This document shows, in pieces, positions 3,698 to 53,816 of a stretch of DNA of 64,000 nt. The notes beneath the pieces are model-generated. The model saw only the letters and a program-made list of their open reading frames with translations, had not been told where the DNA came from and did not search any database. Position numbers and translations under genes: made by a program. The DNA comes from Escherichia phage vB_EcoP-101114UKE3. The stretch is taken from sequence record NC_070982.1; one strand, written 5' to 3'. The first letter of the stretch is position 1. Every line of letters begins with the position of its first letter.

Positions 3698-3709
3698 TGG
3701 AGGTGCCTT

Positions 3710-4513: not shown

Positions 4514-4522
4514 GGAGGAACT

Positions 4523-7500
4523 ATGGCGCTTTATCCAATAAAATCTTTAGGGGCTGTAGGGGTTATTGCTGACCAAGCTCCGACTGATTTAGCACCTAAT
4601 GCTTTCACTAATGCTATCAATGCCCGCTTTGTAGAGCAAAGAGTTTTTAAGACGGGGGGCAATGCCCCTCTTTCTTATGTAGAAGAAGATAAAGAGATTA
4701 CACCACTTTCTTTTATATCAATGCCTTTTGACTACTATAGTGCAGGTAATAGCTTTCTGATTGTTGGTACAGACAAAAAGCTATACAAGCTAACAGATGA
4801 AAGTTTGACAGATATTAGCCGAAAGGTTGCTACTGTCACAAAAAGAGCTTCCGCTTCTATTAAGATATATCCGGTTGTTTCTCAGATTGTTCCTAAAGAA
4901 ACTTCTATTTCAATGAATTTCAATCAAACTAAAACCTTGGAAGTTTCTATTCTTCCTGAAGATGCTAATAACACAGCTTTAGTTTGGGAGGTTAGTAATT
5001 CTTCTTATGGTAAAGTAGAAGCTGACACCGAGAACCCTAAAACTGCAACCTTGACGTCTTATGAAAAAGAAGGGAATTTAGTAGTTACTGTATCAACAGC
5101 TGATAAATCTATTAGTGCTCAGATTGCAGTAAACATCATAGATGGTGATTCTGGTATCTTCTTAAGTCAGGATACAATAACTGTCCGCAAAGGTGGTAAC
5201 ACAACACTAACTGCTGTTACTGGAAAAACTCCTGTAACTTGGGTCTCTAGTAATGCTTCTGTTGTGTCTGTAACACCTAATGCTAATACACTGACAGCTA
5301 CTTTGTCTGCTAATGGTGAGGGTACTGTAACAATAACTGCTGATAACGGAACTAAGAGTGCTTCTTGTCAAATTACTGTTATACCTCAGATAGACAGTAT
5401 CACTCTGAGTCAGACAAGCGTTCAAATGAGCAGGGGTACTCAGTATGTTTTAACTGCTACGGTTAATCCTTCAGATGCTCCCAATAAAAGCATAACTTGG
5501 ACTTCCTCTAATCCTGCCATTGCCACAGTTTCTGGAAATAGTACAGAAGCGGTAATAACAGGGTTACTAGCTGGGTTTACTGAAATCACAGCTGTTACTC
5601 AAGAGGGTGATAGATCAGCAACCTGTACAGTGAGAGTTGATTTAGCTGGGAGAATGATGCGAACTTCTGCAATGGCTTTATCAGAACCTGTTGTAGATTC
5701 TATACAAGAAGAAGAAACCAATAATACTCCTATCGAATCAGAAGAGGTTTTATATTTTGTTAATGAGCCATCTGGAGTTGATACCTCAGGGATGTATGAA
5801 GGTAACAACTTCTATGATTACTCAAACGTCAATGATATGGAAGGTTTTGCACGAGCTGCACTTATGTCCAGCGATACTCCGTTGCAATCTTTATCACTAG
5901 ATATCATCGATGCCTCTCTTGATGTTGGGGAAGATATTGTAATTACAGCCAATGCTTTGCCTGAGGGAGAGTATTTCTATCAGTGGACAGTGGACAAAGC
6001 AGGATATGTTTCAACCACATCTACTACCGGGAAATCTCTAAAACTGACAGCTATTCGTAAAGGTGAGATCAAAGTTACTTGTACTGCTAGTCAAATGACT
6101 CAGAAAGATTATGATGCTTTTGACGACTATCCTTGGTATCACACCATAATCTCTAACTGTGCAGTGGCTACCACTCACTATGAAACACCACAGGTCAAAG
6201 AATTTGAATCTGAGTATTTCGTAGATCTTCCGGGATGGGGTGAGCAAACAGTCGTTGATAATGATGGCAACCCTTCTGTTAAGAAATTTAACTGGAAGTG
6301 TGAGCGTATTCGTGCATTCAACAACAGACTTTTTGCTCTGAATATGAGGGAATCTAATGCATCTGGTGTAACTACTCACTACCCTCTAAGACTTCGGTGG
6401 TCGAATTTCGCTAACGAAAACAAAGCTCCATCTCTTTGGGATGATTATGCTTATGATCGTTTAACAACTTCAGACCTATCAGCAAACATTGTTGGTCAAA
6501 CTGAGGCTTTGGAAAATGGGTACGCTGGGTATATAGATTTAGCAGATTCTAACGGAAGCTTGATTGATGTACTTCCTCTGAAAGATTACCTTTTTGTTTA
6601 CACGGAGTTCGAAACCTACATTGGTTCTCCAACCAATAACACATATCAGCCTCTTATGTTTAAGAAGCTGTTTAATGACTCTGGCATACTTGCTCCTGAG
6701 TGTGCAGTTGAAGTCGAAGGTGGACACTTCGTAGTAACTCAAAATGATGTGATCTTACACAATGGTGCATCTAAAAAATCTATAGCATCTAACCGAGTCA
6801 AGAATCTTCTCATTAATGAGATCTGTCTAGTAAACCCTCTAGCTACTAGAGTTCACCTACACCAAGACAAGAAAGAGGTTTGGGTTTTATATGTAGGTCC
6901 GGGAGAGCCTAAAGAGAGTTTTGCTTGTAATAAAGCCGCTGTTTGGAATTATGAGTTTGACACTTGGTCTTTCCGTACAATACCATATGCTCAGTGTATT
7001 GGGTTAGTCGATCCACCAGTTCTTGAGAGAGGTCCAATCTGGGCAGATTTTCAAGAGATCACTTGGGATGATCCCTCTATTAACCAATTAGTCTGGAGAA
7101 AGGATGCTAATAACTTCCGTCAAAGGATTACAATAGTTGGCTCTTTCCTGAAAGGATTCTATCAAGTGGATGTTGGTGCTCTGGATTACATCTATGATAG
7201 AACCAACGATAGGATTATAGAAAAACCTTTAGAAATGAGGCTAGAAAGAACTGGTATTGATTTTGATAGTGTCACTAACGAGTGGAATCAAAAACATATT
7301 AATAGATTTAGACCTCAAGTCACTGGTACGGGTACCTATACTTTTGAAGTCGGTGGAAGTCAATTCTCAAACGAGTATGGACATAATCACTCAACTAAAG
7401 AGTTTAGGGTAGGCTCAGATCGTCATGTATCCGTGAGACTGAACCATCCATACCTATTCTATAATGTTATAGATAATGATGTTAACAGTAATGCTTCTAT

Positions 7501-19612: not shown

Positions 19613-20461
19613 TTATTCCCAAGTTTTATCTAACCATGACCAATCAAAGAGGTCACCTTCAGCTTGTCCAACGAAGAGCAATCGAGCGTTTTCTAACATC
19701 TTATCTTCTGCTTCTTCCTCGAACCTCTTATAGTATTCCATTCGTATAATATGATAAAGAGTCCACTTATCGAATACCTTCTCAATAAGTTTGATTGCAG
19801 CCTTGCTACCAATGCCTTTACGGCGCATAACCAAGTTGCCACCCCACATCATTTCAACCTTCTCACCACAACCGGGAATATTATCTGTATTATCCCCAAT
19901 CAACATTTGGTAGAAGAAATTCTGCCATGCTACTTCTTCTGATACATAATGAGGAGGTACTTCTTTCTGTCTTTCTCCACAAGCCCAACGATAATGCCAT
20001 CCGGGAGTGATTAACAAATCTTTATCACGAGTACAGATAATCGTATTCTTATCTCGTCTCTGTCTTTCAGCTAGGGCATCATCTGCCTCTCTCCCAAAGA
20101 CTTCTACATACTCGTAATTTTCTTTAATATAATCACTAACGTTCTGCCAGTGGTGGGGTCTTTCTCCCGGTGGGCGATTAGCTTTGTAGCCTTGCTGTTT
20201 AGCAATGTTAAATCGAAAGTTACCACCTTCACTGAAGTAAAAGATTGTTTTCTCACAACCTGACCTTGCAATGATTACATCAATTTTGTGTTGAAGTCGT
20301 TCAATCAAGAATCCATAATCAACTGGAACACGACCTGTGTCTAGAAAAGGATGCTCTTGTGTAAGAGCACCGACTTCATATCGCAGAACATCTGCATCCA
20401 CAATTGCTACTTCAGGATAGATTACATCAGACATAGAGTTCTCTCCGTGTCCGTACAACAA
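19613..20461 (-). CDS. 5'-3' exonuclease/flap endonuclease
   Basis: N-terminal VAIVDADVL and H3TH-like GIGSKAAIKLIEKV motifs. Confidence 0.7.
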   Translation of the reverse strand: MLYGHGENSMSDVIYPEVAIVDADVLRYEVGALTQEHPFLDTGRVPVDYGFLIERLQHKIDVIIARSGCEKTIFYFSEGGNFRFNIAKQQGYKANRPPGERPHHWQNVSDYIKENYEYVEVFGREADDALAERQRRDKNTIICTRDKDLLITPGWHYRWACGERQKEVPPHYVSEEVAWQNFFYQMLIGDNTDNIPGCGEKVEMMWGGNLVMRRKGIGSKAAIKLIEKVFDKWTLYHIIRMEYYKRFEEEAEDKMLENARLLFVGQAEGDLFDWSWLDKTWE

Positions 20462-25756: not shown

Positions 25757-26002
25757 TTATTTATTCTGTGTTTCCAGTTCGCTGATACGAACTTTCAAAC
25801 CGTTAATCTCAGCCTGAGCAGCTTCTAGTTTAATTAGAGCTTCTTCAGCGTCAGCTTCTGTTTGAAGAACCGCAGTGGTTAGTTCGTATAAAGCTTGGCG
25901 GAGAGAATCTTTTCCCATAGCATGAATCTGTGCAACAAAGAATTGCTTACCTTCCGTGGTTTCCAAAGTCTCTTTTAATTCTTTAGATGTTAAAGTCATC
26001 AT
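25757..26002 (-). CDS. hypothetical coiled-coil protein
   Basis: 81-aa helical ORF. Confidence 0.4.
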   Translation of the reverse strand: MMTLTSKELKETLETTEGKQFFVAQIHAMGKDSLRQALYELTTAVLQTEADAEEALIKLEAAQAEINGLKVRISELETQNK

Positions 26003-26381
26003 TACTCCCTTTCATAAATTTTAAGAACTGTACCGCCATCTGCTTCAATCTGAGCAACTACTTCATCGCGCTCTTCATCAGAATAAACCAGTTGGTTGTG
26101 AAATTTGCCTGTACTATCTTGGAAATACACATTCCATTTTGGAGCAGGTTTACGAATCAAATCCATCATTGATCTTTCTCCTCTCGTTCAACCCATGTAT
26201 GGAAAAGCTCCCCATACACTTTGGCATCATCAAAACGTCCTTCTTCCTGTGCGAGTTTTTGTTGCTTCAAGCACCATTCAGAACTTTTTACTTCTTCCAC
26301 TTCCTTGTCTCCTTAAAAAGAACTAATCAATAAGACTAGTTCATTTCATAATACGATTCAGCTCTTCCACTGAACTAATCA

Positions 26382-26693
26382 CTACTTCTCCACCACAAAG
26401 AGGTTAACTTCAATGAAAGTTTCGTATTGTGTTGACTCCTGCTTACGGGTGTAGTAGAAATGACGACCTTCTAATGCACCTCCGTACTGAGTGGCACATC
26501 TTTTAACCATCTCTTTTATCACATCTACAACTGATTCGCCTTTCCACGGACGTAACCCCTGAGTTGGGACTTTTGCTGTACAGGTTACTTGTGTGTAACC
26601 TACATCTTGTAGAGATATCTCAAGAATCAGCTTTGCCCAAGCATCAAAATTAAGCTTGGGGTTATATTTAACTTCAGTTTTGATATCAATCAT
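26382..26693 (-). CDS. hypothetical protein
   Basis: 103-aa ORF coupled downstream of DNA polymerase. Confidence 0.4.
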   Translation of the reverse strand: MIDIKTEVKYNPKLNFDAWAKLILEISLQDVGYTQVTCTAKVPTQGLRPWKGESVVDVIKEMVKRCATQYGGALEGRHFYYTRKQESTQYETFIEVNLFVVEK

Positions 26694-28537
26694 TAGTGAG
26701 TATGATTCCAGTTTAATCCAATCTTACAATCTGATGCAAGAGGACATTCCATCTTGAGGTATTCCCCTGCTTTACGAACACATTCTTCAGTGAGGGTACG
26801 AAGTTTGTTAACATCATCACGATGTACAGTGAACTGTCCTTCATCATGCATGTCAATAACCTTCGCACAACGAACACCATCCCGCTCAATCCATTTATTG
26901 AGGAATAGCATTGCATACTTCATAACAATCGCCCCAGCGCTCTGTAAGAGTGTATTTAAGGCTTTATGGACCATAACCTTTCCAGTTGCATCTCTTCTCA
27001 TTGTAATACGACGTCCATCCACACCGTAGATATATCCACTTTGCGCTTTCTCTGTCATACGTTCAATAAGGATTGCAATACAAGGGTTCTCTGCTAAGAA
27101 TCTTGCTCTCATGATAGCCCCTTCGTCAGAGCCACCACCTACAATACTTCCTAACTTAGCGTCACCTGCCCCATAGTTAAAGGCATAGATAAACGTTTTA
27201 GCATTATCACGAGTAGGAAGGCCAGCAAGTTTTTGGTTATGTGAGTGAATATCTCCTTCTAAAAGAATATCTCTATACATAACAGCAGAAGCTAGACCAC
27301 GTTCAGCTTCTCGTTTCTTAGCCGGGTTGTTTTCTCGCTCTGCTTCAGCGAGCATCTCACGACATTCTTTAATAAGGTAGTGAGCTAGCATCCTCAGCTC
27401 AAGACCAGAGCCATCGTAACCTAAGAAGATTTCACGACCAGCAGGAACATAGAACTTATAGGCACCTACGGGTTTGTCTTTCTTGCCCGGTTTTCCCACT
27501 TCGTAGATAATGTTAGTACCCTTTCGTACGTAACACCCATCAGGGATATGGTTGGTAATGATGAAAGGATGGTTATGACTATCGTCTGAGGAATAGTCAG
27601 ATTGAAAAAGACTGCGGCACTCGTGACCAAACAAACCGCGAGAAGGAATATTAACAACAATGCGATGTTTAAAACGAAATGTCGGAGTAGCGCAGCTATT
27701 AGCTTCGGCGGACAACTTACCATCTTTACGTTCCTTGTCGATAAGCCCGCTAATCAAACCTAGCCTGTGAGCCGCTACAACGCGTCTCTTAAGCAAACTT
27801 CCTACACCCCCTAGCTCACCCCCAAGCCCCTCTTCAAGAGTCTCCTCAAGGTTTGTAGGGGCTGTGGGCCACTTGTTTGATGTAGCCAAAGCTTTTTTGA
27901 TTTCATCAAAGGTTACAGGTTTCTTCCTATTCGGATTAAGACCTAAACCACTGACGTAGGCTTTCATGTAGTTGACAGTGTGATAACGGAAATGTTTATC
28001 CAAAAATCTTCGGATATCAGCATCTATCATCTCCGCTGTCTGTTTCTCTTTAGCATTACCTCGAATCCAAGCAGAATACCATGCAGAGTATGTACCATAC
28101 TTCTTCATAGCTCTACGGATTTCAAATGTATTCCAAGGTTTCTTAGAATAATTCCACTCTGGAGGTATGAAGCCCTCATCCATCAAGGCTTCTTTAATAC
28201 GTGCATCTTTCGATGGGTCGAAGTCTACATACTCAACGCAAGTAAACGCCCCACCGATATCTTCTCTTTTAAGACCAACCCTATCGCAATAGAGCTGAGG
28301 CCACTTCTGTAAAGCACCTGATTTCTTAAAAGGCTTAGCATAAGTTGAACCATCCACCCGCATTTTAGGGAGGAGAGGAATCAGTTCTTTATCAATATTG
28401 ACAATAATCTCTTTGAGAAGGTGAACAAACCACCGAGCGTTTCTTCTGTTGAAGTTGACTCCATGCTTCGCTTGTTTTGAGATTATATCAGCGACTGTCA
28501 TCTCCGTTATGAAAGGTAACTTATCAGGGTTATCCAT
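26693..28537 (-). CDS. DNA polymerase, family A (polymerase domain only)
   Basis: motif A FLGYDGSGLELRMLAHY, motif B RDNAKTFIYAFNYGAG, motif C VHDE; ATG 28537 with AAGGAG SD (track start 28540 is GTG). Confidence 0.85.
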   Translation of the reverse strand: MDNPDKLPFITEMTVADIISKQAKHGVNFNRRNARWFVHLLKEIIVNIDKELIPLLPKMRVDGSTYAKPFKKSGALQKWPQLYCDRVGLKREDIGGAFTCVEYVDFDPSKDARIKEALMDEGFIPPEWNYSKKPWNTFEIRRAMKKYGTYSAWYSAWIRGNAKEKQTAEMIDADIRRFLDKHFRYHTVNYMKAYVSGLGLNPNRKKPVTFDEIKKALATSNKWPTAPTNLEETLEEGLGGELGGVGSLLKRRVVAAHRLGLISGLIDKERKDGKLSAEANSCATPTFRFKHRIVVNIPSRGLFGHECRSLFQSDYSSDDSHNHPFIITNHIPDGCYVRKGTNIIYEVGKPGKKDKPVGAYKFYVPAGREIFLGYDGSGLELRMLAHYLIKECREMLAEAERENNPAKKREAERGLASAVMYRDILLEGDIHSHNQKLAGLPTRDNAKTFIYAFNYGAGDAKLGSIVGGGSDEGAIMRARFLAENPCIAILIERMTEKAQSGYIYGVDGRRITMRRDATGKVMVHKALNTLLQSAGAIVMKYAMLFLNKWIERDGVRCAKVIDMHDEGQFTVHRDDVNKLRTLTEECVRKAGEYLKMECPLASDCKIGLNWNHTH

Positions 28538-28553
28538 CACCCACTCCTTATAG

Positions 28554-28907
28554 TTATTGGTATATTAAGTCTGTGAATGCTTGGTTGTCTTCAACAATAT
28601 CTAAAGCTTCATATGAATCAGACAATTCATCCACATAAAAGACTGCTGGAATATCTTCTGCTCGCTGTCTACGAGATTCCCTTTGTTCATTGATATTTCT
28701 TTGAACCTGTGCAAGTTTCATACCCCACACCTGCTCATACAACTCTGGATATTTGTCACTAACCACTACATAATTTCGAGCTGGTTGGTTTCTATTAATC
28801 TTCGCTGTCAACTCAATAAACTGGCGAAACTCTTGAATAGAGAGGTTGTCATGAATATTATCCCATTTGAGAACGCAGTGACGTTCTAGGCATTGAGGTA
28901 CTGGCAT
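28554..28907 (-). CDS. hypothetical protein
   Basis: 117-aa ORF. Confidence 0.4.
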   Translation of the reverse strand: MPVPQCLERHCVLKWDNIHDNLSIQEFRQFIELTAKINRNQPARNYVVVSDKYPELYEQVWGMKLAQVQRNINEQRESRRQRAEDIPAVFYVDELSDSYEALDIVEDNQAFTDLIYQ

Positions 28908-28910
28908 AAC

Positions 28911-29180
28911 TTACTCCACTGTCGGGAATGGTTTTAGGTTGTTCATGGCTGTACGAACATCAGCACAGATTTCAGGATCACGATAAGAGAGGAATTTACC
29001 ATCCTTACCACGAATCATTACATTAGTCCGTGATGTTTTATTAGGCAATAAAGAAATCCCTCCAATAAGATGGTTGGTAGGGTGTTGTCCTTGATTAACC
29101 TTGTAGTCATGAGTCTGAGCGTCACCATTAAAGAGATGATCACGAATTTGGATTAAGCTAATCTTCATATTATGCACCAA
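28911..29180 (-). CDS. small protein, tandem paralog
   Basis: shares TxRTNVxxRGxDGKFxSxRD...NLKPFP with next gene. Confidence 0.4.
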   Translation of the reverse strand: MVHNMKISLIQIRDHLFNGDAQTHDYKVNQGQHPTNHLIGGISLLPNKTSRTNVMIRGKDGKFLSYRDPEICADVRTAMNNLKPFPTVE

Positions 29181-29421
29181 AGTTAGGGAAAGGTTTCAGA
29201 TTTTCAATAGACTTAGCAATACGCTTAGGAACAGCCTTATCACGGAAGGAGATGAACTTTCCATCAGGACCACGAAGGGCTACATTAGTACGAGCTGTTG
29301 TTTTGTTAAACTGAATCATCTCAACAGAGCTTGTAACATTTTCTACAGGAAAAGTATAGCTCTCAGTTGTGTTCAGAGAAGGGAGGAAATCAGTTACAGT
29401 GATGTAAGTTACTTTAGACAT
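29170..29421 (-). CDS. small protein, tandem paralog
   Basis: start MSKVTYI at 29421 after terminator hairpin. Confidence 0.4.
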   Translation of the reverse strand: MSKVTYITVTDFLPSLNTTESYTFPVENVTSSVEMIQFNKTTARTNVALRGPDGKFISFRDKAVPKRIAKSIENLKPFPNFGA

Positions 29422-29442
29422 ATTTATTACCTTAGGTTCTAT

Positions 29443-29472
29443 AAAAGAAAAGGCCACCCGAAATGGGTAGCC
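29443..29472 (-). terminator. intrinsic terminator
   Basis: minus-strand ggcuaccc-auuuc-ggguggcc (G-U on this strand) then uuuucuuuu. Confidence 0.5.
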
Positions 29473-29477
29473 TTATA

Positions 29478-29792
29478 TCAACTTGAGCTTAAAGCTCCTT
29501 TGCGACCGCCTGCTGATTTTCCAGCACGATCTCCACTTTTGCCGCCGTTCGAGCGATTTCGAGAGACTGATTCAACACGTAAGTTACTTGACGCATTAGA
29601 ACCTCCCGACTTGATTGATCGTTTGTGTCCAACATCTTTACCTCGGACAGCAGCTTTTCCATCGCGCTTTTCAACGATGCGACGTGCACGGTGGCGCTGA
29701 GCATCTCCGCTCTTGCTACCAACGCCGGTCTCACCCCTTGCGATTGCAGTTCTTCGTTCTTGTGCATAATCACGTTTCGCCTTATCGGTCAT
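29478..29792 (-). CDS. basic low-complexity protein
   Basis: strong AAGGAG SD before MTDKAK; K/R/G/S-rich; overlapping alternative frame 29489..29773 has weak start context. Confidence 0.3.
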   Translation of the reverse strand: MTDKAKRDYAQERRTAIARGETGVGSKSGDAQRHRARRIVEKRDGKAAVRGKDVGHKRSIKSGGSNASSNLRVESVSRNRSNGGKSGDRAGKSAGGRKGALSSS

Positions 29793-29826
29793 CATAACTC
29801 CTTAATATATCAGTGTACACTAAGGA

Positions 29827-29836
29827 GTATACATTA
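29827..29836 (-). promoter_or_regulatory. promoter-like motif TAATGTATAC
   Basis: variant of TAATGTATATA about 35 nt upstream of start at 29792. Confidence 0.35.
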
Positions 29837-29839
29837 TGT

Positions 29840-30577
29840 TTATGATTTTTCAGATTCCATTGCTTTAACAATAGCTTTACAGAAACCTGAACGAACAATA
29901 TCATCCGATTCGCCATCTACTAGAGCGGCAAATTCAAATAACTGGTGACGGTAGATGAAATCAGTAGCCCAATCAAGACCGCTCTCACCACGCATGTCGT
30001 GCTGGTTAGTGTCCCCCATGCAGAACATCTGAGAGGTTTCACCAAGACGTGTCATGATTGAATATGCTTCATCAGGAGTAGTGTTCTGGAACTCATCAAC
30101 AATCACGATAGCATCGTTGAACGAGCGACCACGTAGATATTCCAGAGGTACGAACTCAATATTACCATTACCTACTTGACATTCGTAGAAACCTTTACCG
30201 TAGCGCTGAGTAATAACATCAACGATTGGCATTAGGTATGGTTCAAACTTCTCACGAAGCCCACCGGGAAGTAATCCAAGACTATTACCCATACCAACAG
30301 CAGGTCGGCTTAGGATAATCTTCTCAATCTTCCCACTCTTCAGAGCATCAATCACTGTAGAAGTGATTACGAAGGTCTTACCACAACCAGCAGGAGCATC
30401 TGTGAATACAACCTGTTTGGTTTTAATTGCATCAAGCAGCTCACTCTGGAATTGGTTCTGAGGTACTACCGGCTTAGCAAGAACTACTTCTTCAAATTCC
30501 CGCTTTCCTTTCTTGGTGACGAGAGCTTCACGACGTAATTCTCTCCGTGATGCTTTCCGAGATTCTCTACGACTCAT
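29840..30577 (-). CDS. phoH: PhoH-like ATPase
   Basis: Walker A APAGCGKT and PhoH-like core. Confidence 0.8.
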   Translation of the reverse strand: MSRRESRKASRRELRREALVTKKGKREFEEVVLAKPVVPQNQFQSELLDAIKTKQVVFTDAPAGCGKTFVITSTVIDALKSGKIEKIILSRPAVGMGNSLGLLPGGLREKFEPYLMPIVDVITQRYGKGFYECQVGNGNIEFVPLEYLRGRSFNDAIVIVDEFQNTTPDEAYSIMTRLGETSQMFCMGDTNQHDMRGESGLDWATDFIYRHQLFEFAALVDGESDDIVRSGFCKAIVKAMESEKS

Positions 30578-30755
30578 TTCCTACCTCCGTGTTCTTCATA
30601 TAAGAAGCTACAGGATTTACACTCTGAGCAATGGATACCTATAACCTTAATTTCGACAAACTTCTTATTCTTCCCTTTAGTCGGGGAGCCTTTGGCAAGC
30701 TCCCGTATTACTTTCGAGTCCAAATGGAGAAGAGTTGATTCACATTTAAAACATT

Positions 30756-31076
30756 TCAGATTGATTTGTCCTTATGTAAACGGTATACTTCAGTAGCCAT
30801 ACAAGCTATACGCTCGTCATGTGGGAGATGCATACCAGTAGAGCCGTTCCATCCTTCGAACTCTGAATCAAAGAATCCAATAGGCTCGGGATACATCTCT
30901 TGCAAGGTGGTTAAGTCATCAGCCACTTGTTGCCACTTATCGTCAGACCAGATTGGGTCATCCAACCAATAATACAAATAGGAGTGGATAAGCATCTGTG
31001 TTCTATGTCGTTTAATCACTTCAGCAGGACTGATTTCATTTCCGTTACCAGTCCTAAATGTATTATTGTTGATCAT
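30756..31076 (-). CDS. NAD-dependent DNA ligase domain-Ia-like small protein
   Basis: HSYLYYWLDDPIWSDDKWQQVADDLTTLQEMYPE matches LigA N-terminal H-x-YLY-x-D-P-x-I-D-EYD-L-LE-HPE pattern; no adenylation domain. Confidence 0.45.
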   Translation of the reverse strand: MINNNTFRTGNGNEISPAEVIKRHRTQMLIHSYLYYWLDDPIWSDDKWQQVADDLTTLQEMYPEPIGFFDSEFEGWNGSTGMHLPHDERIACMATEVYRLHKDKSI

Positions 31077-31552
31077 TCCAAAACCCTTTCTTCTAAATCA
31101 TAAAAGATTTGATTTGTCCCATTATTCTCAACAAGCACTGTTCCATTATCTAGCAGGGTAGCAACTTGGGAATAAGGAATGTTCTTTAACATCAGAGCAT
31201 TAATGGTCGGCTTGTTTTTGAAGTAAGCGACAGGCTCAACATAGAAGGAAATCCCACGACTTCCTTTAATTGGGGTGCTTGAAGATAGAACCCAAATTGT
31301 TTCTGGCTTGTCTATTTCCTTTTCAACACCAACCTCAACAAGAGAGTCAGCAGCGAAACCTACAGGACGCCTAGAAGAACCAAGCAACCGAACATATCCC
31401 GGTAATTTTGACATATTAGACCAACTACCAGTGTTTTCATTAAACACAGGTCTTACATCACCATATGCCCAAACCAGATTATCATAGTCACGGGCTATGT
31501 ATTTAACCCAATCAGGAACATCATACTCCCTTCCTTCAAAAATAGCTTTCAT
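31073..31552 (-). CDS. hypothetical protein
   Basis: 159-aa ORF. Confidence 0.4.
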   Translation of the reverse strand: MKAIFEGREYDVPDWVKYIARDYDNLVWAYGDVRPVFNENTGSWSNMSKLPGYVRLLGSSRRPVGFAADSLVEVGVEKEIDKPETIWVLSSSTPIKGSRGISFYVEPVAYFKNKPTINALMLKNIPYSQVATLLDNGTVLVENNGTNQIFYDLEERVLE

Positions 31553-31747
31553 TTAGATAACCTTGTGCTTATAGATGTTAGGGTTGTAGTAATGCAACCA
31601 GTTTATGTATTGTTTCTGTTCAAGGTAGTGTCTGCAATCATGACAAAAAGCATGACCCAAACCTGTTTCCTCGTTCAGCTTGAAGTTGATAAGAAGCTTC
31701 TGCTTTTGACAGAAGCTACATGCTTTAGTGGGCTTCACGTAATGCAT
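31553..31747 (-). CDS. small zinc-ribbon protein
   Basis: CSFC...CHDC cysteine pairs; start chosen to minimise overlap with ThyX. Confidence 0.35.
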   Translation of the reverse strand: MHYVKPTKACSFCQKQKLLINFKLNEETGLGHAFCHDCRHYLEQKQYINWLHYYNPNIYKHKVI

Positions 31748-32375
31748 CCCATGAGATTGGGAAAAGTTTACGAAGCTCTTCATCAACAGTTGATGCGAAC
31801 ACTCGTACTTCATACTGAGCATGGTCGGACAGTCGCTGACGACATAACTCTGACCAGCCATATAAAGAACCTGTCCACACCCACTCAGTGATCATACCTT
31901 GAGGTAGAACGAATCGGGCTTGCTCTGGAGCAATAAACTTAATCAACTCATCATATGACTCAAGAGCTGTTTCATATGCCCGATTAATCAGAACTAGTGC
32001 AGAGTTTTGCGCTCCCGTGGTGAGGAGATTCCCCGCACCTGCATGGAGGTCCGAAGGTCTTTCAAAAATCTCTTTAGGGATGAAGAGTTCAACTGCTCCA
32101 TCTTTATACCGCCGGGACATTTCGTTCCACGAGAATCCAACTTGATGCTTGCCCAGCTGTCTCGCAATTGCGATTGGCGCTTTGCATCGGAAGCTAATTG
32201 TCGGATGGCGGAATGGTGTGACATGCTTTTCTCTGGCAAGGAACTTGATAAGGCGTTCATCTCGTTCATTTAACTCTCCTTCACGAGTAACCCCAAAGGA
32301 AACTCGAGCTGCATTAACAACAGATTTATCAGAACCCATTGCTTCAATTAGTGTTGCTTGTAATTGTTCGTTCAT
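31725..32375 (-). CDS. thyX: flavin-dependent thymidylate synthase-like (ThyX)
   Basis: PFRHPTISFRCKAPIAIARQLGKHQVGFSWNEMSRRY aligns to ThyX signature region, with K-H-Q in place of R-H-R. Confidence 0.7.
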   Translation of the reverse strand: MNEQLQATLIEAMGSDKSVVNAARVSFGVTREGELNERDERLIKFLAREKHVTPFRHPTISFRCKAPIAIARQLGKHQVGFSWNEMSRRYKDGAVELFIPKEIFERPSDLHAGAGNLLTTGAQNSALVLINRAYETALESYDELIKFIAPEQARFVLPQGMITEWVWTGSLYGWSELCRQRLSDHAQYEVRVFASTVDEELRKLFPISWDALREAH

Positions 32376-32389
32376 CCTTGAATTCTTCC

Positions 32390-32605
32390 TTAGTAATGAA
32401 TCTTTTTATAAATCAGGTTGCTTCCACTTTCTGTTTCAATCCCTTTCTGGATTGTAATCTTAGAAGCACCGGTATTAGCAATTTTTAAAGCTCGTTTAAA
32501 GCGGCGAGCCTCTCTCCGTGTTGTGTATGAGGAGAAGCTAGGGATTGTACTATCAAAATTAAACCACTTAACTACCCAAAAAGTAATCCAAGGTTTCTTT
32601 TCCAT
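32390..32605 (-). CDS. small protein, TR(Q/R)EAR family paralog
   Basis: TRREARRFKRAL ... KKIHY shared with 34470..34685 and 34685..34897. Confidence 0.4.
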   Translation of the reverse strand: MEKKPWITFWVVKWFNFDSTIPSFSSYTTRREARRFKRALKIANTGASKITIQKGIETESGSNLIYKKIHY

Positions 32606-32606
32606 A

Positions 32607-32882
32607 TTAAATACCTTTCAGAGCTGTATCTAAAAACGCACGGAGGTTTGATTCAGTTTGCATACCGGACAAGCTGTAGTGAGCACCACTGTTCATGTTA
32701 GGAACCACAAAGGCTGGGATACTGCGAACACCATATTCAATGGCTCGCTCTCGACCATTACCTTCAGAGATATTTACTTCTTCAACTTCTACGTTGTAAT
32801 CAGCTACAACTTTCTTAAACACAGGAGCCATAGCTGCACACGGAGCACAGGAATTACTATAAAACTTAATTACTTTACTCAT
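32607..32882 (-). CDS. thioredoxin/glutaredoxin-like protein
   Basis: start MSKVIKF; CAPC active-site motif. Confidence 0.65.
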   Translation of the reverse strand: MSKVIKFYSNSCAPCAAMAPVFKKVVADYNVEVEEVNISEGNGRERAIEYGVRSIPAFVVPNMNSGAHYSLSGMQTESNLRAFLDTALKGI

Positions 32883-33072
32883 TTTATTCCTTGTTAATAA
32901 ACAGATTGATATGACGTTGGGTAGCAGGAACAACAATAAAAGATTTATACTGACCTTTTGCTAAGTCATGAGCAATCTTCTTTGTCTGACTAAGACCCAT
33001 TACACAGCCACTAACAATAATAGCATGTGCTTGTAGCTCTTCAGGTAGGTTTAGTTTCACTCTTTGGGTTCC

Positions 33073-33258
33073 TTATAGCATACAAAGAATAATAACAAGA
33101 GGTAGTGTTATAGCAAAATGTACCAGAACAACACTACCTAGCTTGATAGCTTTAACATCCTCTTCTGCTGGGTTTTCTTTAATTGCTAAATTTCGAGCTT
33201 TATATATAACAGTACCAACTATTAACGACCACACGGCCCACACAATCAGTGAAATCAT
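33073..33258 (-). CDS. small membrane protein (tandem paralog)
   Basis: two TM segments; similar to 33268..33489. Confidence 0.45.
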   Translation of the reverse strand: MISLIVWAVWSLIVGTVIYKARNLAIKENPAEEDVKAIKLGSVVLVHFAITLPLVIILCML

Positions 33259-33267
33259 ATCAAACCC

Positions 33268-33489
33268 TTATGCAGTCAACAGGTGGAGAAGGAAAGGAAT
33301 GACAACAGAGAAGACTACCAGAGCAATGCTGCCATGTTTAATGGGTTTAGCGTCATTCGGGTTCTCTTTAAGCATCTGTTTCTGAGCTACATAAACGATA
33401 CCGCCAACAAAAATTGCCCATACAGACCATACGATTGCTGAAAACATACTCATATCCTTATAAAGAAGTTCGCCCCACCTCTTGAACAA
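33268..33489 (-). CDS. small membrane protein (tandem paralog)
   Basis: two TM segments. Confidence 0.45.
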   Translation of the reverse strand: MFKRWGELLYKDMSMFSAIVWSVWAIFVGGIVYVAQKQMLKENPNDAKPIKHGSIALVVFSVVIPFLLHLLTA

Positions 33490-33510
33490 AGAGACAGGGC
33501 GGAGGTTTGA

Positions 33511-34086
33511 TTAGTAAGACACATCACCACTGGAGTGGGACATGTTGCTCTTGACGAAGTAACAGAACTTGCCAAGACCTTCATTAATTTCTTGAAGCAT
33601 ACTCTGGTCCACTGGATAGGTGCACAAGTCTGAATCAAACTCATCCATCTTCTCAATGATACACATAAGAGTCATGCACATGTCGGAAAGCATACCGTCC
33701 ATGTCAAGATCAGCGTTACCTTCTCGGAACCAAGCATGACCTAAATAATTACTAGCAGTAGCATCCACTTTAACACAATGAAAGCGCATACGCTCTGCTA
33801 TTCGGTCGCCTGCCTCACGAGCATAATCTTCTAGTTCATCGAACATACCATGAACACCTTGGAAACCAGCTCCAGAGACGTTCCAGTGGTAGTTCTTTGC
33901 TTTGATGTGTAGAAGTTCAAGGTTAGCTTGCACACCACACAAGATGTGTTCTAAGCTGTTACCGCTAATCAGTTTATTCATTCCCTCAAGACGAGAGATA
34001 GAAGAGTCAGTAGCAGAGAATGGGTTGCTAGAACCCACTCGTGTTAGTTCTGGTAAGTCGAAGACATTATTATGCATTAGGTGCAT
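33511..34086 (-). CDS. Dps/ferritin-like protein
   Basis: YHWNVSGAGFQGVHGMFDELEDYAREAGDRIAER matches Dps ferroxidase-site region. Confidence 0.55.
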   Translation of the reverse strand: MHLMHNNVFDLPELTRVGSSNPFSATDSSISRLEGMNKLISGNSLEHILCGVQANLELLHIKAKNYHWNVSGAGFQGVHGMFDELEDYAREAGDRIAERMRFHCVKVDATASNYLGHAWFREGNADLDMDGMLSDMCMTLMCIIEKMDEFDSDLCTYPVDQSMLQEINEGLGKFCYFVKSNMSHSSGDVSY

Positions 34087-34399
34087 CCCCTTCTAAGTTA
34101 GTTGAATTAGCTACATTACGAGCAATGTTATCCATGACCTGCTGTGTAATAACAATGCAATTCTGAGGGTCTACTGATTTAGAACGCCCCATCTCAGGGT
34201 CATAGACTTTGACTCGCTTGGCTGTTGAGCCAGTAACTTGCAACACTTTGAGAAGATAGCCTTGGTTTCCAATAGACCATGCAACAACATCACGATTCTT
34301 GATATAACGACCAAGCATGTCACGATGATAGAACTGCTGCATAACTTTAGCTTTGCTAATCTCTTCAGATGGCGGGGCCACTTTACTCAAATCTAACAT
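34070..34399 (-). CDS. hypothetical protein
   Basis: second ATG (MLDLSKV, 34399) has AGGAG SD; promoter motif just upstream. Confidence 0.4.
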   Translation of the reverse strand: MLDLSKVAPPSEEISKAKVMQQFYHRDMLGRYIKNRDVVAWSIGNQGYLLKVLQVTGSTAKRVKVYDPEMGRSKSVDPQNCIVITQQVMDNIARNVANSTNLEGDAPNA

Positions 34400-34435
34400 A
34401 ACTCTCTCCTGTTTCATACAATATTCTTATACTGT

Positions 34436-34446
34436 ATATACATTTG
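34436..34446 (-). promoter_or_regulatory. promoter-like motif AAATGTATATA
   Basis: about 37 nt upstream of start at 34399. Confidence 0.45.
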
Positions 34447-34469
34447 AGAGTTATCATATCTACTACCAA

Positions 34470-34685
34470 CTAGTAATAAACCTTGCTGGATATGAATCCA
34501 GCACTGTTATGGATATTTTCAATCCAACGATGAATCTCCACCTTTTCAGCGATTCCTAAAGCTTTTGTAGCTTTTATAGTTTTCTTAGCAAGACGAGCCT
34601 CTTGTCTTGTGTTGAATAATTGAATACAATCACCACCAAGAGCTTTGTTAGCCCATTTAGTACGAACTGCCCATAATTTATCCAT
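34470..34685 (-). CDS. small protein, TR(Q/R)EAR family paralog
   Basis: NTRQEARLAKK. Confidence 0.4.
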   Translation of the reverse strand: MDKLWAVRTKWANKALGGDCIQLFNTRQEARLAKKTIKATKALGIAEKVEIHRWIENIHNSAGFISSKVYY

Positions 34686-34897
34686 TAGTAATGTACCTTT
34701 CCGCTGATATAGAAACGACCTGATTTAAAGTCTTGAGCTTTGTGGATAGTGATCTTATTAATTGTGCTTTCACAACTTAATAAGAACTTCTTATGAGCGC
34801 GAGCTTCTTGACGGGTATTCCTAATACCCATTGACTCTGTACCACTGCTCCAGTGAATACGAACTACCCAACGTCTTTTCATTGTTCCAAACTCCAC
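34685..34897 (-). CDS. small protein, TR(Q/R)EAR family paralog
   Basis: NTRQEARAHKK. Confidence 0.4.
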   Translation of the reverse strand: MEFGTMKRRWVVRIHWSSGTESMGIRNTRQEARAHKKFLLSCESTINKITIHKAQDFKSGRFYISGKVHY

Positions 34898-35088
34898 TAT
34901 CTGTCAACCGATTTAGGGACAAACTGCATTACACAGACCTGACTACGAGGGAGATTTATTTCACAAGCGGCTCTTCTCGTCTCAATCTTAACGCTAGAAT
35001 CTGGACCAACGTTAGATATAAATACTCCCATAGCAAATGCCCCAACTACAAAACCTATAGCTAAGTAAGTAGCTTTTTCTTCTTTCAT
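34897..35088 (-). CDS. small membrane protein
   Basis: TM segment LAIGFVVGAFAMGVFI. Confidence 0.35.
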   Translation of the reverse strand: MKEEKATYLAIGFVVGAFAMGVFISNVGPDSSVKIETRRAACEINLPRSQVCVMQFVPKSVDR

Positions 35089-35093
35089 CTTGG

Positions 35094-35627
35094 TTATACA
35101 CCCTTAGATGCAACTACACCATTACTGCCGTTGTATCGACCCTTCACTGCATAAGAGTCATCACCAGCGTGAGAGTGTTCGAACATAACCATTTGACCAA
35201 CACGCATCCCAGCACGAACTCGTAAGCTATGATTATGGGTAACGTTATGAAATTCAAAGGTTAGTTTACTGCTGTTAAACCCTGCATCAGCCCAACCAGC
35301 ATGGAGGTGGTTTAAACCACAACGAGCCATTGAGGAGCGAAGTACAAACAGGCTTGAGATGTTATCTGGAAGGTTAAACTCTTCCATTGAGTGCGCTAAG
35401 AAGAATTGCCCCGGAGTGATAACAATACCATCTTCAGGGATTTTTACTTCTTTCCACTTGAGGTTTTCTTTAGCATCAATGTCAACAATTCCGTCAGCCT
35501 GTTCTTCAACAAGGATAGTATCACCAATACGGATATCCACGCTAGCAGCGTTAACATATTTATGCTCCGCATCTAAAAAGCCATTATCAATAACGCTGTG
35601 TAATTCTTGAGAACCTAAAAGACTCAT
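35094..35627 (-). CDS. dcd: dCTP deaminase (dUTPase-fold)
   Basis: HAGWADAGFNSSKLTFEFHN motif. Confidence 0.7.
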   Translation of the reverse strand: MSLLGSQELHSVIDNGFLDAEHKYVNAASVDIRIGDTILVEEQADGIVDIDAKENLKWKEVKIPEDGIVITPGQFFLAHSMEEFNLPDNISSLFVLRSSMARCGLNHLHAGWADAGFNSSKLTFEFHNVTHNHSLRVRAGMRVGQMVMFEHSHAGDDSYAVKGRYNGSNGVVASKGV

Positions 35628-37087
35628 GAGTTTCTGTTTCCTTGTACAGATGATGCCAAATTATTAATCATGTTACGAGCTGTTTCACGAGATAGTGTAA
35701 CACCTGCTAAGTTGTTATGAAGCTCACCAGATAGCTCACGAGCAGCAGCTCGAAGTTCTGTACCAAGTGTAGTATCGGAGTGAGCCAAACCATTACGACG
35801 ACTATAAGGTCGAGGAGCTTCGTTAGCGTCATTAGCCAATGATGCAAAACCAATATGAGCAGCTTCACGAGACGCTATAGTTGACACTCGATCTTCCGTA
35901 GGGGTTGGCAAATCACCAACTTCTACACGTTCTATATCACCAGCACGTAGACCCTGAACGACTGAGCTTACTGTTTCCCATGAACGACGAGAACGCTGTA
36001 AATCACCCATTGACGGAGAAGAAGCAGGTCGAACAGTTACTCCACCTGTATCATGAGTGACATGCCATGTACGAGTATCCATTCCAGAAGAGCGTGCACT
36101 ACCAAAACTGCCAGTGAAAGTGTCACGAGGTGCCATTGTAGGAGGAACTGCGAATCTTTCCTGTTGCCAAGAATCGCGTCTGTTAGTTCCCGGAGTCCAA
36201 GGCTGCGTGATTGCTTCAGCACCTATAGTGGTTAATCCGCTAGACCATTCTGTCTGTAGGTTAACTTCCTCGTCCAGATAACTACGACCCCTTTCCTGAG
36301 GAATGTTTAATATAGTTTCCATCATCTTCAGGGTATAATGACGACGCTGATTCTGATATAAATTTACACCAGCCATAGGTCCAACTAAATCACTAATCAG
36401 GTGAACTTCTGGCTCACCGAAAGCTCCCATTGCAAGGTGCATATATTCGGTAGAACTGCTATAAACTGCAACAGTTGCTTCAGGCCACTTCTTGTGAACA
36501 TACTTCATTTCACGACCAGATACCACAGGAATGTCACGAGTGTATGACATTGCAAACAAACCTTCGTTTGACACATACATGTCATCAAGAGACATGAACC
36601 CCTGACAGATCATAGGAAAGCGACGGCTTAAAGTATCCATATCCAAAGGTAGATTAATCATCATCTGGATTTTAACTTGATCAATCTCAATTTCCAGAAT
36701 CTCTTGGAAAGTGAAAAGTGCTTCAGCGTAAGTTGTCCCACTAACAGGCTGAACTAGGCGAGATGTAGTTTGAAGCCCTTTACTCTCTGTCCAAGACAAG
36801 AAGTTGTCAAGGAACAGTGCAGCATTCATCACGTTAGCAGGGTTGTTTTCCTGACGGGTGTTCCAACGAAACCCTCCTTGGACTAGGAAGATATCCACAT
36901 CATTCGGAGTTCGGTTCTGGAAGAACGTATCACGGATAGCACCACCTGCAATAACAGGGTAGATACCATCAGGAACTACGTTGTCTCTGATCAGATTGCG
37001 AATCAGATCAAGCCCTACGCTGAGGGCTTCTCCTTCTTGAAGGTTTAATTCAGACAATGGAATCTTAATCATTTCTACATTTTCCAA
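35624..37087 (-). CDS. nucleotidyltransferase (CCA-adding/poly(A)-polymerase-type head) with low-complexity C-terminal half
   Basis: [10 protein letters not shown]...DVDIFLV polymerase-beta-type NTase motifs; C-terminal 230 aa S/T/R/A-rich. Confidence 0.5.
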
Positions 37088-37623
37088 TTTAGAGATGGGG
37101 GATTCTTATAATCAAATCCAGCCATTTGGCAAAGACACATGTAAACCTTAACTGTCAAGTTAACGTCTTGCTCACAATACGTGAACATGTCTTCAGTGAA
37201 TGCATCCCATGCTTCTTCCTGTTCACCATAATCACCCTTCAGCTCTCCCAGAAATTCGCCCCATTGCTTGAGGCCATGACCGCGAGGGCCATGTCTAGGG
37301 TCGCCTTTGGGGTATTCTGGACTATCACCAATACGGTCAGGCTTGAGATATCTACTCAGGCACAAAGTATCGAAGACGTTAAAGCGAAAAGGTATCACAT
37401 GAGAATAAAACTTAAACAAAGCAGGAAGGTCAAAATCAATAATATTGTGACCTATTACTACATCAGCTTCTTTCAGTTTGTGTAGTGCTTCTTCAATTTG
37501 GTGAGGGCGATACCCCCACCGCTCTCCAGATAATACATCAAATATCCAGATACACCAGACATTCTGAATACCATCATAGAGATTATCACCCTCGATATCA
37601 AACGCATACAGTTTCTTTACCAC
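37075..37623 (-). CDS. DnaQ-like 3'-5' exonuclease (stand-alone)
   Basis: Exo I YAFDIEGD, Exo II HNIIDFD, Exo III YCEQD. Confidence 0.6.
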
Positions 37624-39407
37624 GGACGTGCCTCCCCTTCCTGTGCAAGTAAGGAAGCTGCATCCTCTCCATTGGTAACGGTAAAAGGATGCTCTTCATC
37701 AACTTCATGATCTTCTCGTTCTACAAGACGACCTGTTTCGTTAATGTATTTGGTATAGCAAACCCCTGTCTGTCCATAGTTACGCTCTTTGAGCAGTCGT
37801 ATGATTGACAAGTTTTTACCTAACCCATCCGCTTGTTTGTTACGTTCAAAACCAATAATACACTGACACCAGCGCATCAATGAACGTGAACCAGTAAACT
37901 GTACTTCTTTAACCTGACCACCTTCTTCGTGAGGTGCACCACCTGCCGGAGCGTTCAAGTGAGATAATACAAAAGCAGTGAAGTCTAATTCCTTACACAT
38001 ACCAGCAAGCTCTGAAGCAATCTTGCTGATTTCTGTGTTTACCTCAGATGGGGTTAAGTGAGATACCAATGCAGTGATGTTATCAAGAATGATAAATTTA
38101 CACTGATTCTCAACTACCCAAAAGCGAATACACTGCTTAATGTCTTCCCACTCGTTCTGCCCAAAGTTGTCATACAAGAAAAACTTATCAGCGTATCGAA
38201 GTGCTTCATCTCGTAGCTGGCTTTCTTCGTACTCAACATCTGGTCGGTGGAATGGAATAGATGCAGATTTACCTGCAATGTTCTTAACAGACATGCCTAC
38301 CTTCTCTTCCAAGAAGAAGCCACCACCATTAAAACCATGCTCAAGGCAAAGCCATGCTACTAGTTCGTGTGCGATTAAGGTTTTACCTGAACCAACACCA
38401 CCGCCGATTGCAACCATCTCTCCCCAACGAATACCAAAGGTCATGTCGTTAAGAGTTTTCCACGGATAAGGAATACCCCATTCCGCTTTCTTCAGAGCAT
38501 CTTCGAGGCAATCAAAAACTGTAACAGCTCCAGCAGGAGATTCCCGCTTAGCTGAATATTTCAGATTGTTGAAAAGCTCTTGACCTCTCCCTGCAAGTAA
38601 CATGTCGTTTGCATCTTTGATTTCCTTTTCTTGTCCGTTATAAGTGAACGTACCTTTTGGAATCCTTGCAAACTTAACATGCGGGTACAGAGAACGACCC
38701 TTAGTTAAAGCAATCTCACCTGCATCATCATTGTCCATGCAGAGTACAATCTCCTCGAAACCATTAATAAAATCACGGTTTCTTGATAATACAGAAGAGA
38801 TTGAACCTGCACCGAACGGAAGAGAGACGCAAGCAGGTTTGATGTTAGTTGCGTTTGTAAACGCGGTAAGTACGTGGAACCCAGACATACAAGAGAGAGG
38901 ATCTTCAAAGATGAAGAGTTTCTTGTTGTATACGTCACCACGTTGTGCTTGAGCCATACCAAACAAGTCGGCTTCTTTCACATTACCTACATAATAGAAC
39001 TTCTTGCTGTCTAGAAGTTTTACTTCATATCCAACAATGTTCCCATCACGTTCACGAGGGAAGAAGTAGCTGTCAGGAGTTTGACCATCTGTTTGGCTTA
39101 AACCGATACGGCATCCATAACGTTCAGATACAGCTTTAGGAATTAAGCGACGAGTCAACTCTCCCTGAGGAAGCTCTAAGCAATCGTCTAAGACTTCTCG
39201 GAGTTCTTCAGGGGACAGCTCTTTCTTTTCATTAGGAGTGGGCGTCGTTCCTTTCTCGAAGATTTCATACGCACCACATCTGTTACATGAACCCCACTCC
39301 TCACCGGACTCTTCATTTCGGAAGAGAATCATGTGATTGCGGGTCTTATCACGACCATGAGAGATACACTCTTTACAGCCTGTGTCTCCCAAAATGATCT
39401 TTGACAT
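37617..39407 (-). CDS. primase-helicase
   Basis: N-terminal Cys4 zinc ribbon, [13 protein letters not shown], Walker [10 protein letters not shown]. Confidence 0.85.
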
Positions 39408-39442
39408 GCTCTATCCTCCTTGGAATTCCTTGAGCAATCTTC

Positions 39443-39650
39443 TTAGTAAAACGATCGTATTTCTTCCCACACATCATCTTGCAAGTTTCTAAAACCCTGC
39501 AAGGTTTGCTTTGTTCTGTGAATAAATTCTTCAGAGTGCTTATCAGGTGTGAGCATACTGACAAACTTTTCATAGCGATTAATCTTCCACCGCATCTTCA
39601 AGTAGTCAGATTCCAGCTTTCTTAACTTCTGCCTGTCAGTTACTGTCATC
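39443..39650 (-). CDS. hypothetical protein
   Basis: start MTVTDRQ at 39650; track start 39745 would overlap GGCT gene. Confidence 0.3.
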
Positions 39651-40067
39651 CTTCTCACCTGCCAGATATGCTGTCCAGTCACCAGATTCAACCAGAACAT
39701 CTTGTTCTTCGTCGATGTGATAAATCCACGCTTCCACAGTTTCACCGCTGTCCAATAATACTGGAATCAGTGTACGCTTGTAAAAGGTGTATGGGTTATC
39801 ATTACCACGATGACCTTCCAGACCGTCATACGGACCTTCCAGACCAGCTTGGGTTGTTTCAAAGACTTCTACACGAACAGGCTTACCATTGCTGTCATGC
39901 TCCAAAGATACACTTGGGAAGTATGCTGTGCAATACTGATACAGGTTACAGTTGTTTACTGTCCACCCTTCACCAATAGACACACCACCTGCACGAGCAT
40001 TGATAGCGTGGTTGTGTTGACCTTTACGAAGAGAACCATACGTTGCAACTAATACTTTATCAGACAT
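39636..40067 (-). CDS. gamma-glutamyl cyclotransferase-like (AIG2/GGCT fold)
   Basis: N-terminal VATYGSLRKG motif. Confidence 0.6.
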   Translation of the reverse strand: MSDKVLVATYGSLRKGQHNHAINARAGGVSIGEGWTVNNCNLYQYCTAYFPSVSLEHDSNGKPVRVEVFETTQAGLEGPYDGLEGHRGNDNPYTFYKRTLIPVLLDSGETVEAWIYHIDEEQDVLVESGDWTAYLAGEKDDSN

Positions 40068-53740: not shown

Positions 53741-53816
53741 TGGTGCGCCCTACAGGACTCGAACCTGTAACCAATAGCTTAGAAGGCTACTGCTCTATCC
53801 GTTGAGCTAAGAGCGC
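53741..53816 (-). tRNA. tRNA-Arg(UCU): tRNA-Arg (anticodon UCU), CCA encoded
   Basis: hand-folded cloverleaf: 7-bp acceptor, D arm GCTC/GAGC, anticodon loop CTTCTAA, T arm ACAGG-TTCGAGT-CCTGT, discriminator A plus CCA. Confidence 0.85.

Follow-up and report, generated by a model that had tools for sequence, protein, structure and literature searches.

Why should a phage keep its DNA polymerase and the 3'-5' exonuclease that would proofread for it in separate genes, thousands of nucleotides (nt) apart? The question is raised by Escherichia phage vB_EcoP-101114UKE3 (NC_070982.1), of which a stretch of 64,000 nt, here called the window, was analysed. An initial annotation made from the letters alone had described a family-A polymerase that carries motifs A, B and C but lacks exonuclease motifs, and a 182-residue DnaQ-like exonuclease with motifs Exo I, II and III, encoded beside the primase-helicase gene about 8.5 kb away; it suggested a split replicase or an accessory proofreading subunit. 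The coordinates and strand given there stand, both genes being on the minus strand, and the gap measures 8,537 bp (28538-37074). The explanation favoured here, with a probability of roughly 0.8, is fission of a single T7 gp5-like gene with insertion of cargo genes between the halves, the exonuclease acting as a non-covalent proofreading subunit.

By motifs, profile and fold, the downstream gene is predicted to encode a family A DNA polymerase of the T7 gp5-like branch. Its ATG start codon lies at 28537, with AGGAG 6 nt before it, and its stop at 26693 closes a product of 614 amino acids (aa). Pfam assigns DNA_pol_A (PF00476) to residues 363-612 (E=4.5e-24; 85.5 bits against a cut-off of 34.3), and the same scan of this protein matched no exonuclease family. 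Conservation was read from an alignment of 32 homologues reaching down to 37% identity. Motif A (DxSxLELR) appears as YDGSGLELR, which aligns with GIDASGLELR of T7, and D375, G376, L379, E380, L381 and R382 are invariant. Motif B (RxxxKxxxYxxxYG), the O-helix of the fingers, reads RDNAKTFIYAFNYG and is near-identical to RDNAKTFIYGFLYG of T7, with R443, K447, Y451, Y455 and G456 invariant. Motif C, which brings the second catalytic aspartate, is HDE at 564-566, and H564, D565 and E566 are likewise unchanged in all homologues.

The AlphaFold model of the polymerase, with a mean predicted local distance difference test score (pLDDT) of 88.9, points to a right-hand fold of thumb, palm and fingers; long helices at residues 6-25 and 31-55 make up its N-terminus, and an RNase-H-like sheet is absent. 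When the model was searched with Foldseek, the top 27 matches were all T7 gp5 structures (E down to 1.9e-25), at a TM-score of 0.58 normalised to the query. The sequence itself matches T7 gp5 significantly over gp5 residues 491-696 and, further upstream, in weak collinear pieces.

The second gene starts with GTG at 37623-37621, preceded by GGAGG at a distance of 8 nt, and its product of 182 aa is predicted to be a DEDDy (DnaQ-like) 3'-5' exonuclease. Its Pfam match to DNA_pol_A_exo1 (PF01612) is marginal, at 24.2 bits over a cut-off of 23.6. It strongly matches two PHROG families that carry the name 'DNA polymerase exonuclease subunit', 38876 (E=2.6e-67) and 403 (E=3.1e-37), and it aligns with the exonuclease domain of T7 gp5 over gp5 residues 4-142 (E=4e-8). 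All five catalytic residues are present, as seen in an alignment of 22 homologues down to 35% identity. Exo I (DxE) lies in FDIEGD, where D9, I10 and E11 are invariant and aligned with D5/E7 of T7; Exo II (Nx3(F/Y)D) has invariant H59, N60 and D65, together with position 58, and is aligned with FHNGHKYDVPAL of T7; Exo III (Yx3D) reads YCEQD, with Y149, C150 and D153 invariant. The pattern of conservation in the two alignments shows both active sites, that of the exonuclease and that of the polymerase, to be intact and under purifying selection.

Stand-alone exonucleases of this kind share a conserved C-terminal tail, AGFDxxNPP, in which F170, P175 and P176 are kept at 90% or more and which corresponds to the former interdomain linker. 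Outside the clade, the sequences nearest to the exonuclease belong to N-terminal domains of polymerases and not to free nucleases. An exhaustive profile search with the exonuclease family returned 4,452 proteins; among the best 150, 43 are at most 250 aa long and 83 are at least 550 aa long, the exonuclease match in the latter mostly starting within residues 1-20. The domain searches of both proteins, with Pfam and PHROG, put DNA_pol_A in one protein and exonuclease profiles in the other, and what the initial annotation had observed is borne out on every point.

The two proteins behave as complementary parts of one enzyme. For both, the best solved relative is T7 gp5. On PHROG 17, a profile of the full-length polymerase, the exonuclease matches positions 670-826 and the polymerase positions 837-1233, adjacent and without overlap. 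In a fused relative of 611 aa (P0145), the exonuclease aligns with residues 2-148 (41% identity, E=4e-35), and the polymerase with residues 164-281 and 304-611 (37% and 43% identity). Once the two window proteins were joined and aligned with eight fused relatives, the junction added just ~15 residues: NWKM from the end of the exonuclease and MDNPDKLPFIT from the start of the polymerase, both inside the linker 'DWGESIxLEH' of the fused proteins. The first residue of the polymerase is thereby the point at which the polymerase domain begins in fused relatives. Where a match in a fused protein reaches the domain start, the polymerase begins at profile position 3-8, at most ~10 residues past the exonuclease match. 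Among 305 related proteins gathered, 105 have both parts, 112 the polymerase part only and 88 the exonuclease part only. By these alignments, the break falls in the linker between exonuclease and polymerase without loss of sequence.

Gene order in relatives bears on where the undivided gene would have stood. The primase-helicase gene, whose product matches PHROG 239 'DNA primase/helicase' at E=5.9e-175 as well as Pfam DnaB_C and Toprim_2, ends with a TAA codon (37619-37617) inside a 7-nt overlap (GTGGTAA) with the exonuclease start, so the two genes are neighbours as first described. A scan of 80 IMG/VR loci encoding relatives of the exonuclease found the same adjacency in the 11 closest (42-95% identity), all of which have a stand-alone exonuclease open reading frame (ORF) just after the primase-helicase gene; in the seven with enough DNA, a polymerase ORF follows on the same strand at a distance of 6.7-9.6 kb downstream. 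A further 63 loci, less closely related (37-42% identity), have one fused ORF instead, ~574-596 aa long where complete, which usually begins -15 to +8 nt from where the primase-helicase gene ends. Since the fused genes adjoin the primase-helicase, the window exonuclease would occupy the place of the former whole gene, with the overlap kept.

The order primase-helicase, exonuclease, downstream polymerase is also found in phages Bas87, SU7, IME267, clash and 4_4572; wherever enough of a related genome is visible, the genes for exonuclease and polymerase are both there in this order. In Pseudomonas phage clash (Bruynoghevirus, LUZ24-like) they are annotated 'DNA polymerase part I' and 'part II' and lie 1.6 kb apart; in Aeromonas phage 4_4572 (Lahexavirus) the gap is 9.6 kb. 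At the DNA level the layout recurs in 97 phage records, 17 of which cover at least 80% of a 14-kb region taken from 26000-40000 of the window. That region is 100% identical to Escherichia phage vB_EcoP-101114BS3 (MZ234015.1; Gordonclarkvirinae) and 90-99% identical to IME267, HC-25922, MLP3, ECBP2, Bas86-88 and others; these are podophages of the phiEco32 group (Gordonclarkvirinae), and IME267 and SU7 are classified in Suseptimavirus.

In a neighbour-joining tree built on 209 columns from the C-terminal region of 167 polymerase sequences, 89 exonuclease-less polymerases, the window protein included, form an unmixed clade, and one old fission would be the simplest reading of the tree; recurrent fission is also possible. 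Relative to fused relatives, polymerases of this clade have specific insertions at ~133-244, 310-360 and 390-420. The insertions at ~133-244 and 310-360 (window ~27806-28141 and 27458-27610) are confidently modelled, one as a helical and one as a beta-hairpin region; they are found in the exonuclease-less clade and not in fused relatives or T7 gp5, and they might offer the detached exonuclease, or other parts of the replisome, a surface to bind.

Some relatives show a further interruption. The polymerase gene of Escherichia phage SU7 has a second break, with an HNH endonuclease gene between a 570-aa part and a 51-aa C-terminal part (positions 2195-4646 of locus L002). Many metagenomic relatives (P0050-P0053, P0114, P0117 and others) are N-terminal pieces of ~450 aa, 72-74% of the window polymerase. 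Both observations suggest insertion of a homing endonuclease or intron at another site of the polymerase gene; the window polymerase is intact, without a second interruption.

The course of events that would account for the locus is as follows. An ancestral gp5-like family-A polymerase gene would have been cut in the linker between its 3'-5' exonuclease and polymerase domains, the direction of change being fission and not fusion. The exonuclease half would have stayed at the ancestral position after the primase-helicase gene, and the overlap of its start with the primase-helicase stop suggests translational coupling; the polymerase half would have acquired a ribosome-binding site and an ATG for itself. 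Between the halves, genes of nucleotide metabolism and small genes would then have built up in a block of variable length, 8.5 kb here. At the protein level, the 182-aa exonuclease would bind the 614-aa polymerase non-covalently and so rebuild a gp5-like enzyme, in which a primer with a mismatched end would pass between the two active sites, from polymerase to exonuclease, as in the single-chain enzyme, giving proofreading in trans. The earlier suggestion of a split replicase or an accessory proofreading subunit fits all the sequence evidence, namely two gp5 halves, a conserved exonuclease site and the gene order.

Several observations weigh against this explanation or against parts of it. AlphaFold modelling of the joined 796-aa exonuclease-polymerase chain from a 9-row alignment gave a pLDDT of 63 and a predicted template modelling score (pTM) of 0.40, with linker and insertions below 50, a model too poor to speak for or against an interface. 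In the tree, the next branches, which form the sister group of the unmixed clade, hold eight fused proteins mixed with a few exonuclease-less ones, so that a single fission is not proven; the sample of proteins behind the tree is, moreover, biased toward relatives, having been gathered with the window proteins as queries. Lastly, two terminator-like hairpins with T-rich tails lie between genes on the coding strand, at 33501-33471 (13-bp stem) and 29474-29450 (10-bp stem), and because they stand between the exonuclease and polymerase genes the halves may not be expressed in fixed proportion. The number of hairpins in the region is at chance (12 against 10.9 expected), and a consensus scan for promoters and terminators likewise gave counts at chance level; of the hairpins only the two intergenic ones deserve note, and neither is proof of how the region is transcribed. 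A terminator annotated in the SU7 record (L002, 5548-5592) appears to match the position of the second hairpin.

An alternative is an exonuclease that is independent of the polymerase, whether as a free trans-editor, as a nuclease tethered to the primase-helicase, or as an enzyme of repair, recombination or host-DNA breakdown, with the polymerase left without a dedicated proofreader. Its start overlaps the stop of the primase-helicase gene and not the polymerase gene, and relatives all retain this adjacency, whereas the polymerase stands at anything from 1.6 to 9.6 kb away; the intervening hairpins and the lack of a readable interface in the joined-chain model point the same way. However, in the 63 fused loci the whole fused gene stands next to the primase-helicase gene, so that this adjacency is inherited from a fused ancestor and needs no special explanation. 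The kinship of the exonuclease with polymerase N-terminal domains rather than with free nucleases also argues for the proofreading subunit, as does its conserved tail, the old linker, which packs onto the polymerase domain. Independence of the two proteins is on balance unlikely, although it keeps a real share of the probability.

A more speculative proposal goes beyond the rebuilt gp5-like enzyme and holds that the split is exploited and not neutral. With the exonuclease coupled in translation to the primase-helicase and two terminator-like hairpins between it and the polymerase, the phage could shift the balance of proofreader and polymerase in the course of infection and so tune its mutation rate. 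In another version the proofreader might ride on the helicase and not on the polymerase, in which case editing would be a property of the replisome and the insertions at ~133-244 and 310-360 would be new docking surfaces. Either version is a long shot at present.

Two further explanations hardly survive. The ORFs might be exons of a single gene, spliced together as RNA or as protein, or the split an artefact of assembly or annotation; introns or homing endonucleases have indeed inserted at other places in the polymerase genes of related phages, such as the HNH gene near the 3' end in SU7. Against this, the exonuclease ORF ends in a stop of its own and the polymerase ORF has a Shine-Dalgarno sequence and an ATG to itself, 20-24 conserved protein genes fill the intervening 8.5 kb on the same strand, and the layout is found in 97 phage records. 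Rfam matched no intron family anywhere in the window and Pfam found no intein domain; spliced exons were rejected on the lack of an intron RNA family and on the separate translation signals of each ORF, leaving this account a negligible chance.

Just as improbable is a polymerase that retains a cryptic or vestigial exonuclease domain, as in Taq, the 182-aa protein being an unrelated extra nuclease: although the polymerase exceeds the corresponding part of T7 gp5 by ~100 aa and is matched by Pfam over residues 363-612 only, its extra length consists of the internal insertions at ~133-244, 310-360 and 390-420 and not of an N-terminal domain, the thumb motif FDPSK is already reached at residue 106 where its T7 gp5 counterpart FNPSS stands at 334 (numbering from the alignment), so that there is no room for an exonuclease domain of ~190 residues, and a profile-profile comparison of the exonuclease and polymerase families gave a probability of 0.16%. 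That comparison, the helical N-terminus of the model and the domain start in aligned fused relatives all agree that the polymerase N-terminus has no intact exonuclease domain, and a hidden one was rejected on these grounds.

The genes around and between the halves are listed in Table 1. The minus strand carries every gene from ~19 kb to past 40 kb. The corresponding gap region of close relatives has 20-24 annotated genes, and many small ORFs also lie inside the cargo region of the window, beside the named genes.

Table 1. Positions of the two polymerase halves, the primase-helicase gene and the named cargo genes in the window
Feature	Position	Strand	Description
Primase-helicase	37617..39407	(-)	596 aa, T7 gp4-like; directly upstream of the exonuclease gene
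DEDDy 3'-5' exonuclease (predicted), stand-alone	37075..37623	(-)	182 aa; putative N-terminal half of a gp5-like polymerase
Cargo region between the halves	28538..37074	(-)	8,537 bp, all genes on one strand
Nucleotidyltransferase-like gene	35624-~37072	(-)	~482-487 aa; directly after the exonuclease gene
dCTP deaminase	35094-35627	(-)	Pfam/PHROG and annotation of relatives
DNA-binding protein	33511-34086	(-)	Pfam/PHROG and annotation of relatives
Thioredoxin	32607-32882	(-)	Pfam E=2.1e-12; CAPC active site
ThyX	31725-32375	(-)	Pfam/PHROG and annotation of relatives
NAD-ligase Ia domain, stand-alone	30756-31076	(-)	106 aa; Pfam Nlig-Ia E=8.2e-34
PhoH	29840-30577	(-)	Pfam/PHROG and annotation of relatives
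Family-A DNA polymerase catalytic subunit (predicted)	26693..28537	(-)	614 aa; thumb, palm and fingers only; putative C-terminal half of a gp5-like polymerase

Several of these products merit comment. The C-terminus of the primase-helicase (window 37620-37700, minus strand), which ends in ...EGEARPW, is an acidic stretch with an aromatic last residue and may resemble the acidic, gp5-binding tail of T7 gp4 with its C-terminal Phe. The nucleotidyltransferase-like protein has a full-length match to PHROG 12715 'nucleotidyltransferase' (E=2.2e-165) and no Pfam match, and the dCTP deaminase gene comes next. The Nlig-Ia protein is the NAD+-binding N-terminal domain alone, without adenylation and OB domains, and relatives annotate it 'DNA ligase' or 'NAD-dependent DNA ligase'; its target may be the ligase of the host, the protein not being a ligase itself.

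The thioredoxin gene draws attention to one element of the polymerase. Residues 56-105 (window ~28223-28372), just before FDPSK, form a partly beta-strand element of ~50 residues at the tip of the thumb, and the thioredoxin-binding domain of T7 gp5 sits at the same position. The sole alignment between the two has an independent E-value of 2.9, which is non-significant. A phage thioredoxin has already been proposed as a processivity factor in the description of Privateer (PMC7881722).

A 5'-3' exonuclease would be a third separate gene, at 19613-20461 on the minus strand, annotated 'exonuclease' in IME267; its product has weak, sub-threshold Pfam matches to 5_3_exonuc_N (E=2.7e-6) and 5_3_exonuc (E=3.6e-4). 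Its separation agrees with an account of the Kuravirus-like group in which both exonucleases are encoded apart from the polymerase (PMC9965538). Upstream of the primase-helicase gene lies a gamma-glutamyl cyclotransferase gene (39636-40067, minus strand; Pfam GGACT, E=8.9e-16), and relatives add an ATP-grasp enzyme, an amidoligase and an amidotransferase there (locus L004, 2525-6921). The same cluster occupies the same position in the LUZ24-like phage clash, and its presence in both phage groups points to a shared early-gene module larger than the split polymerase alone. A single tRNA-Arg gene (anticodon TCT) is found at 53741-53816, also on the minus strand.

The split polymerase arrangement itself is already known, a published and annotated feature of these phages that has been correctly found anew here. 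Polymerase, 3'-5' exonuclease and 5'-3' exonuclease are encoded separately in all members of the Kuravirus-like group, and likewise in Salmonella phage 7-11, Proteus phage Privateer, Vibrio phage Vp_R1 and Aeromonas phage BUCT695 (PMC9965538). The split polymerase of the phiEco32/Kuravirus-like phages (Gordonclarkvirinae) is the same thing as that in the window, with no difference of substance beyond the additional HNH interruption in some members such as SU7 and several metagenomic relatives. In Bas87 the exonuclease gene is annotated 'DNA polymerase exonuclease subunit'. For LUZ24-group phages, polymerase and 3'-exonuclease were described in 2012 as separate genes in all members, and a passage of that paper notes a similar organisation reported for phiEco32, citing Savalia et al. 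2008 (PMC3517423). If that passage is followed, the arrangement has been in the literature since the phiEco32 genome paper, which leaves current understanding unchanged. One paper on a LUZ24-like phage terms the two ORFs 'two exons'. A literature search on split phage family-A polymerases returned genome descriptions only and no biochemical work.

The LUZ24-like Pseudomonas phages (Bruynoghevirus) share the order of primase-helicase, overlapping exonuclease gene and downstream polymerase, with polymerases 41-42% identical to that of the window over their full length and exonucleases ~32-34% identical. Their gap is 1.6 kb with six small genes, whereas that of the window is 8.5 kb with 20-24, and their polymerases are shorter, at ~545 aa against 614 aa. 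T7 gp5 (PDB 1T7P, 6N7W and others) has the same Exo I-III and motifs A-C as the window halves, the motif B tyrosine being Y526 in T7 and Y451 in the window, and T7 gene 5 likewise follows the primase-helicase gene. In T7, however, exonuclease and polymerase make up one chain of 704 aa rather than two, the processivity factor is the thioredoxin of the host whereas the window phage encodes its own, and gp5 lacks the insertions of the window polymerase.

A working precedent for a proofreader on a separate chain is the alpha-epsilon pair of Escherichia coli Pol III, in which a separate DEDD proofreader is bound to the polymerase. Epsilon binds through a C-terminal peptide to the PHP domain, which has no counterpart in the window system. 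The Pol III polymerase belongs to family C and not to family A, and its separation from the proofreader arose independently.

What the present analysis adds to the known arrangement is modest, namely that the break lies exactly in the linker, without loss, that the exonuclease would stand at the ancestral position of the whole gene, and that the cargo ranges from 1.6 to 9.6 kb among groups. For annotation, the 182-aa protein is better named the proofreading subunit of the phage DNA polymerase than a 'hypothetical protein' or a second 'DNA polymerase'. The system offers a naturally occurring case of a family-A replicase divided between exonuclease and polymerase at their linker, usable to study proofreading between separate chains, and one in which 1.6-9.6 kb of cargo genes would have accumulated inside what was formerly a single gene.

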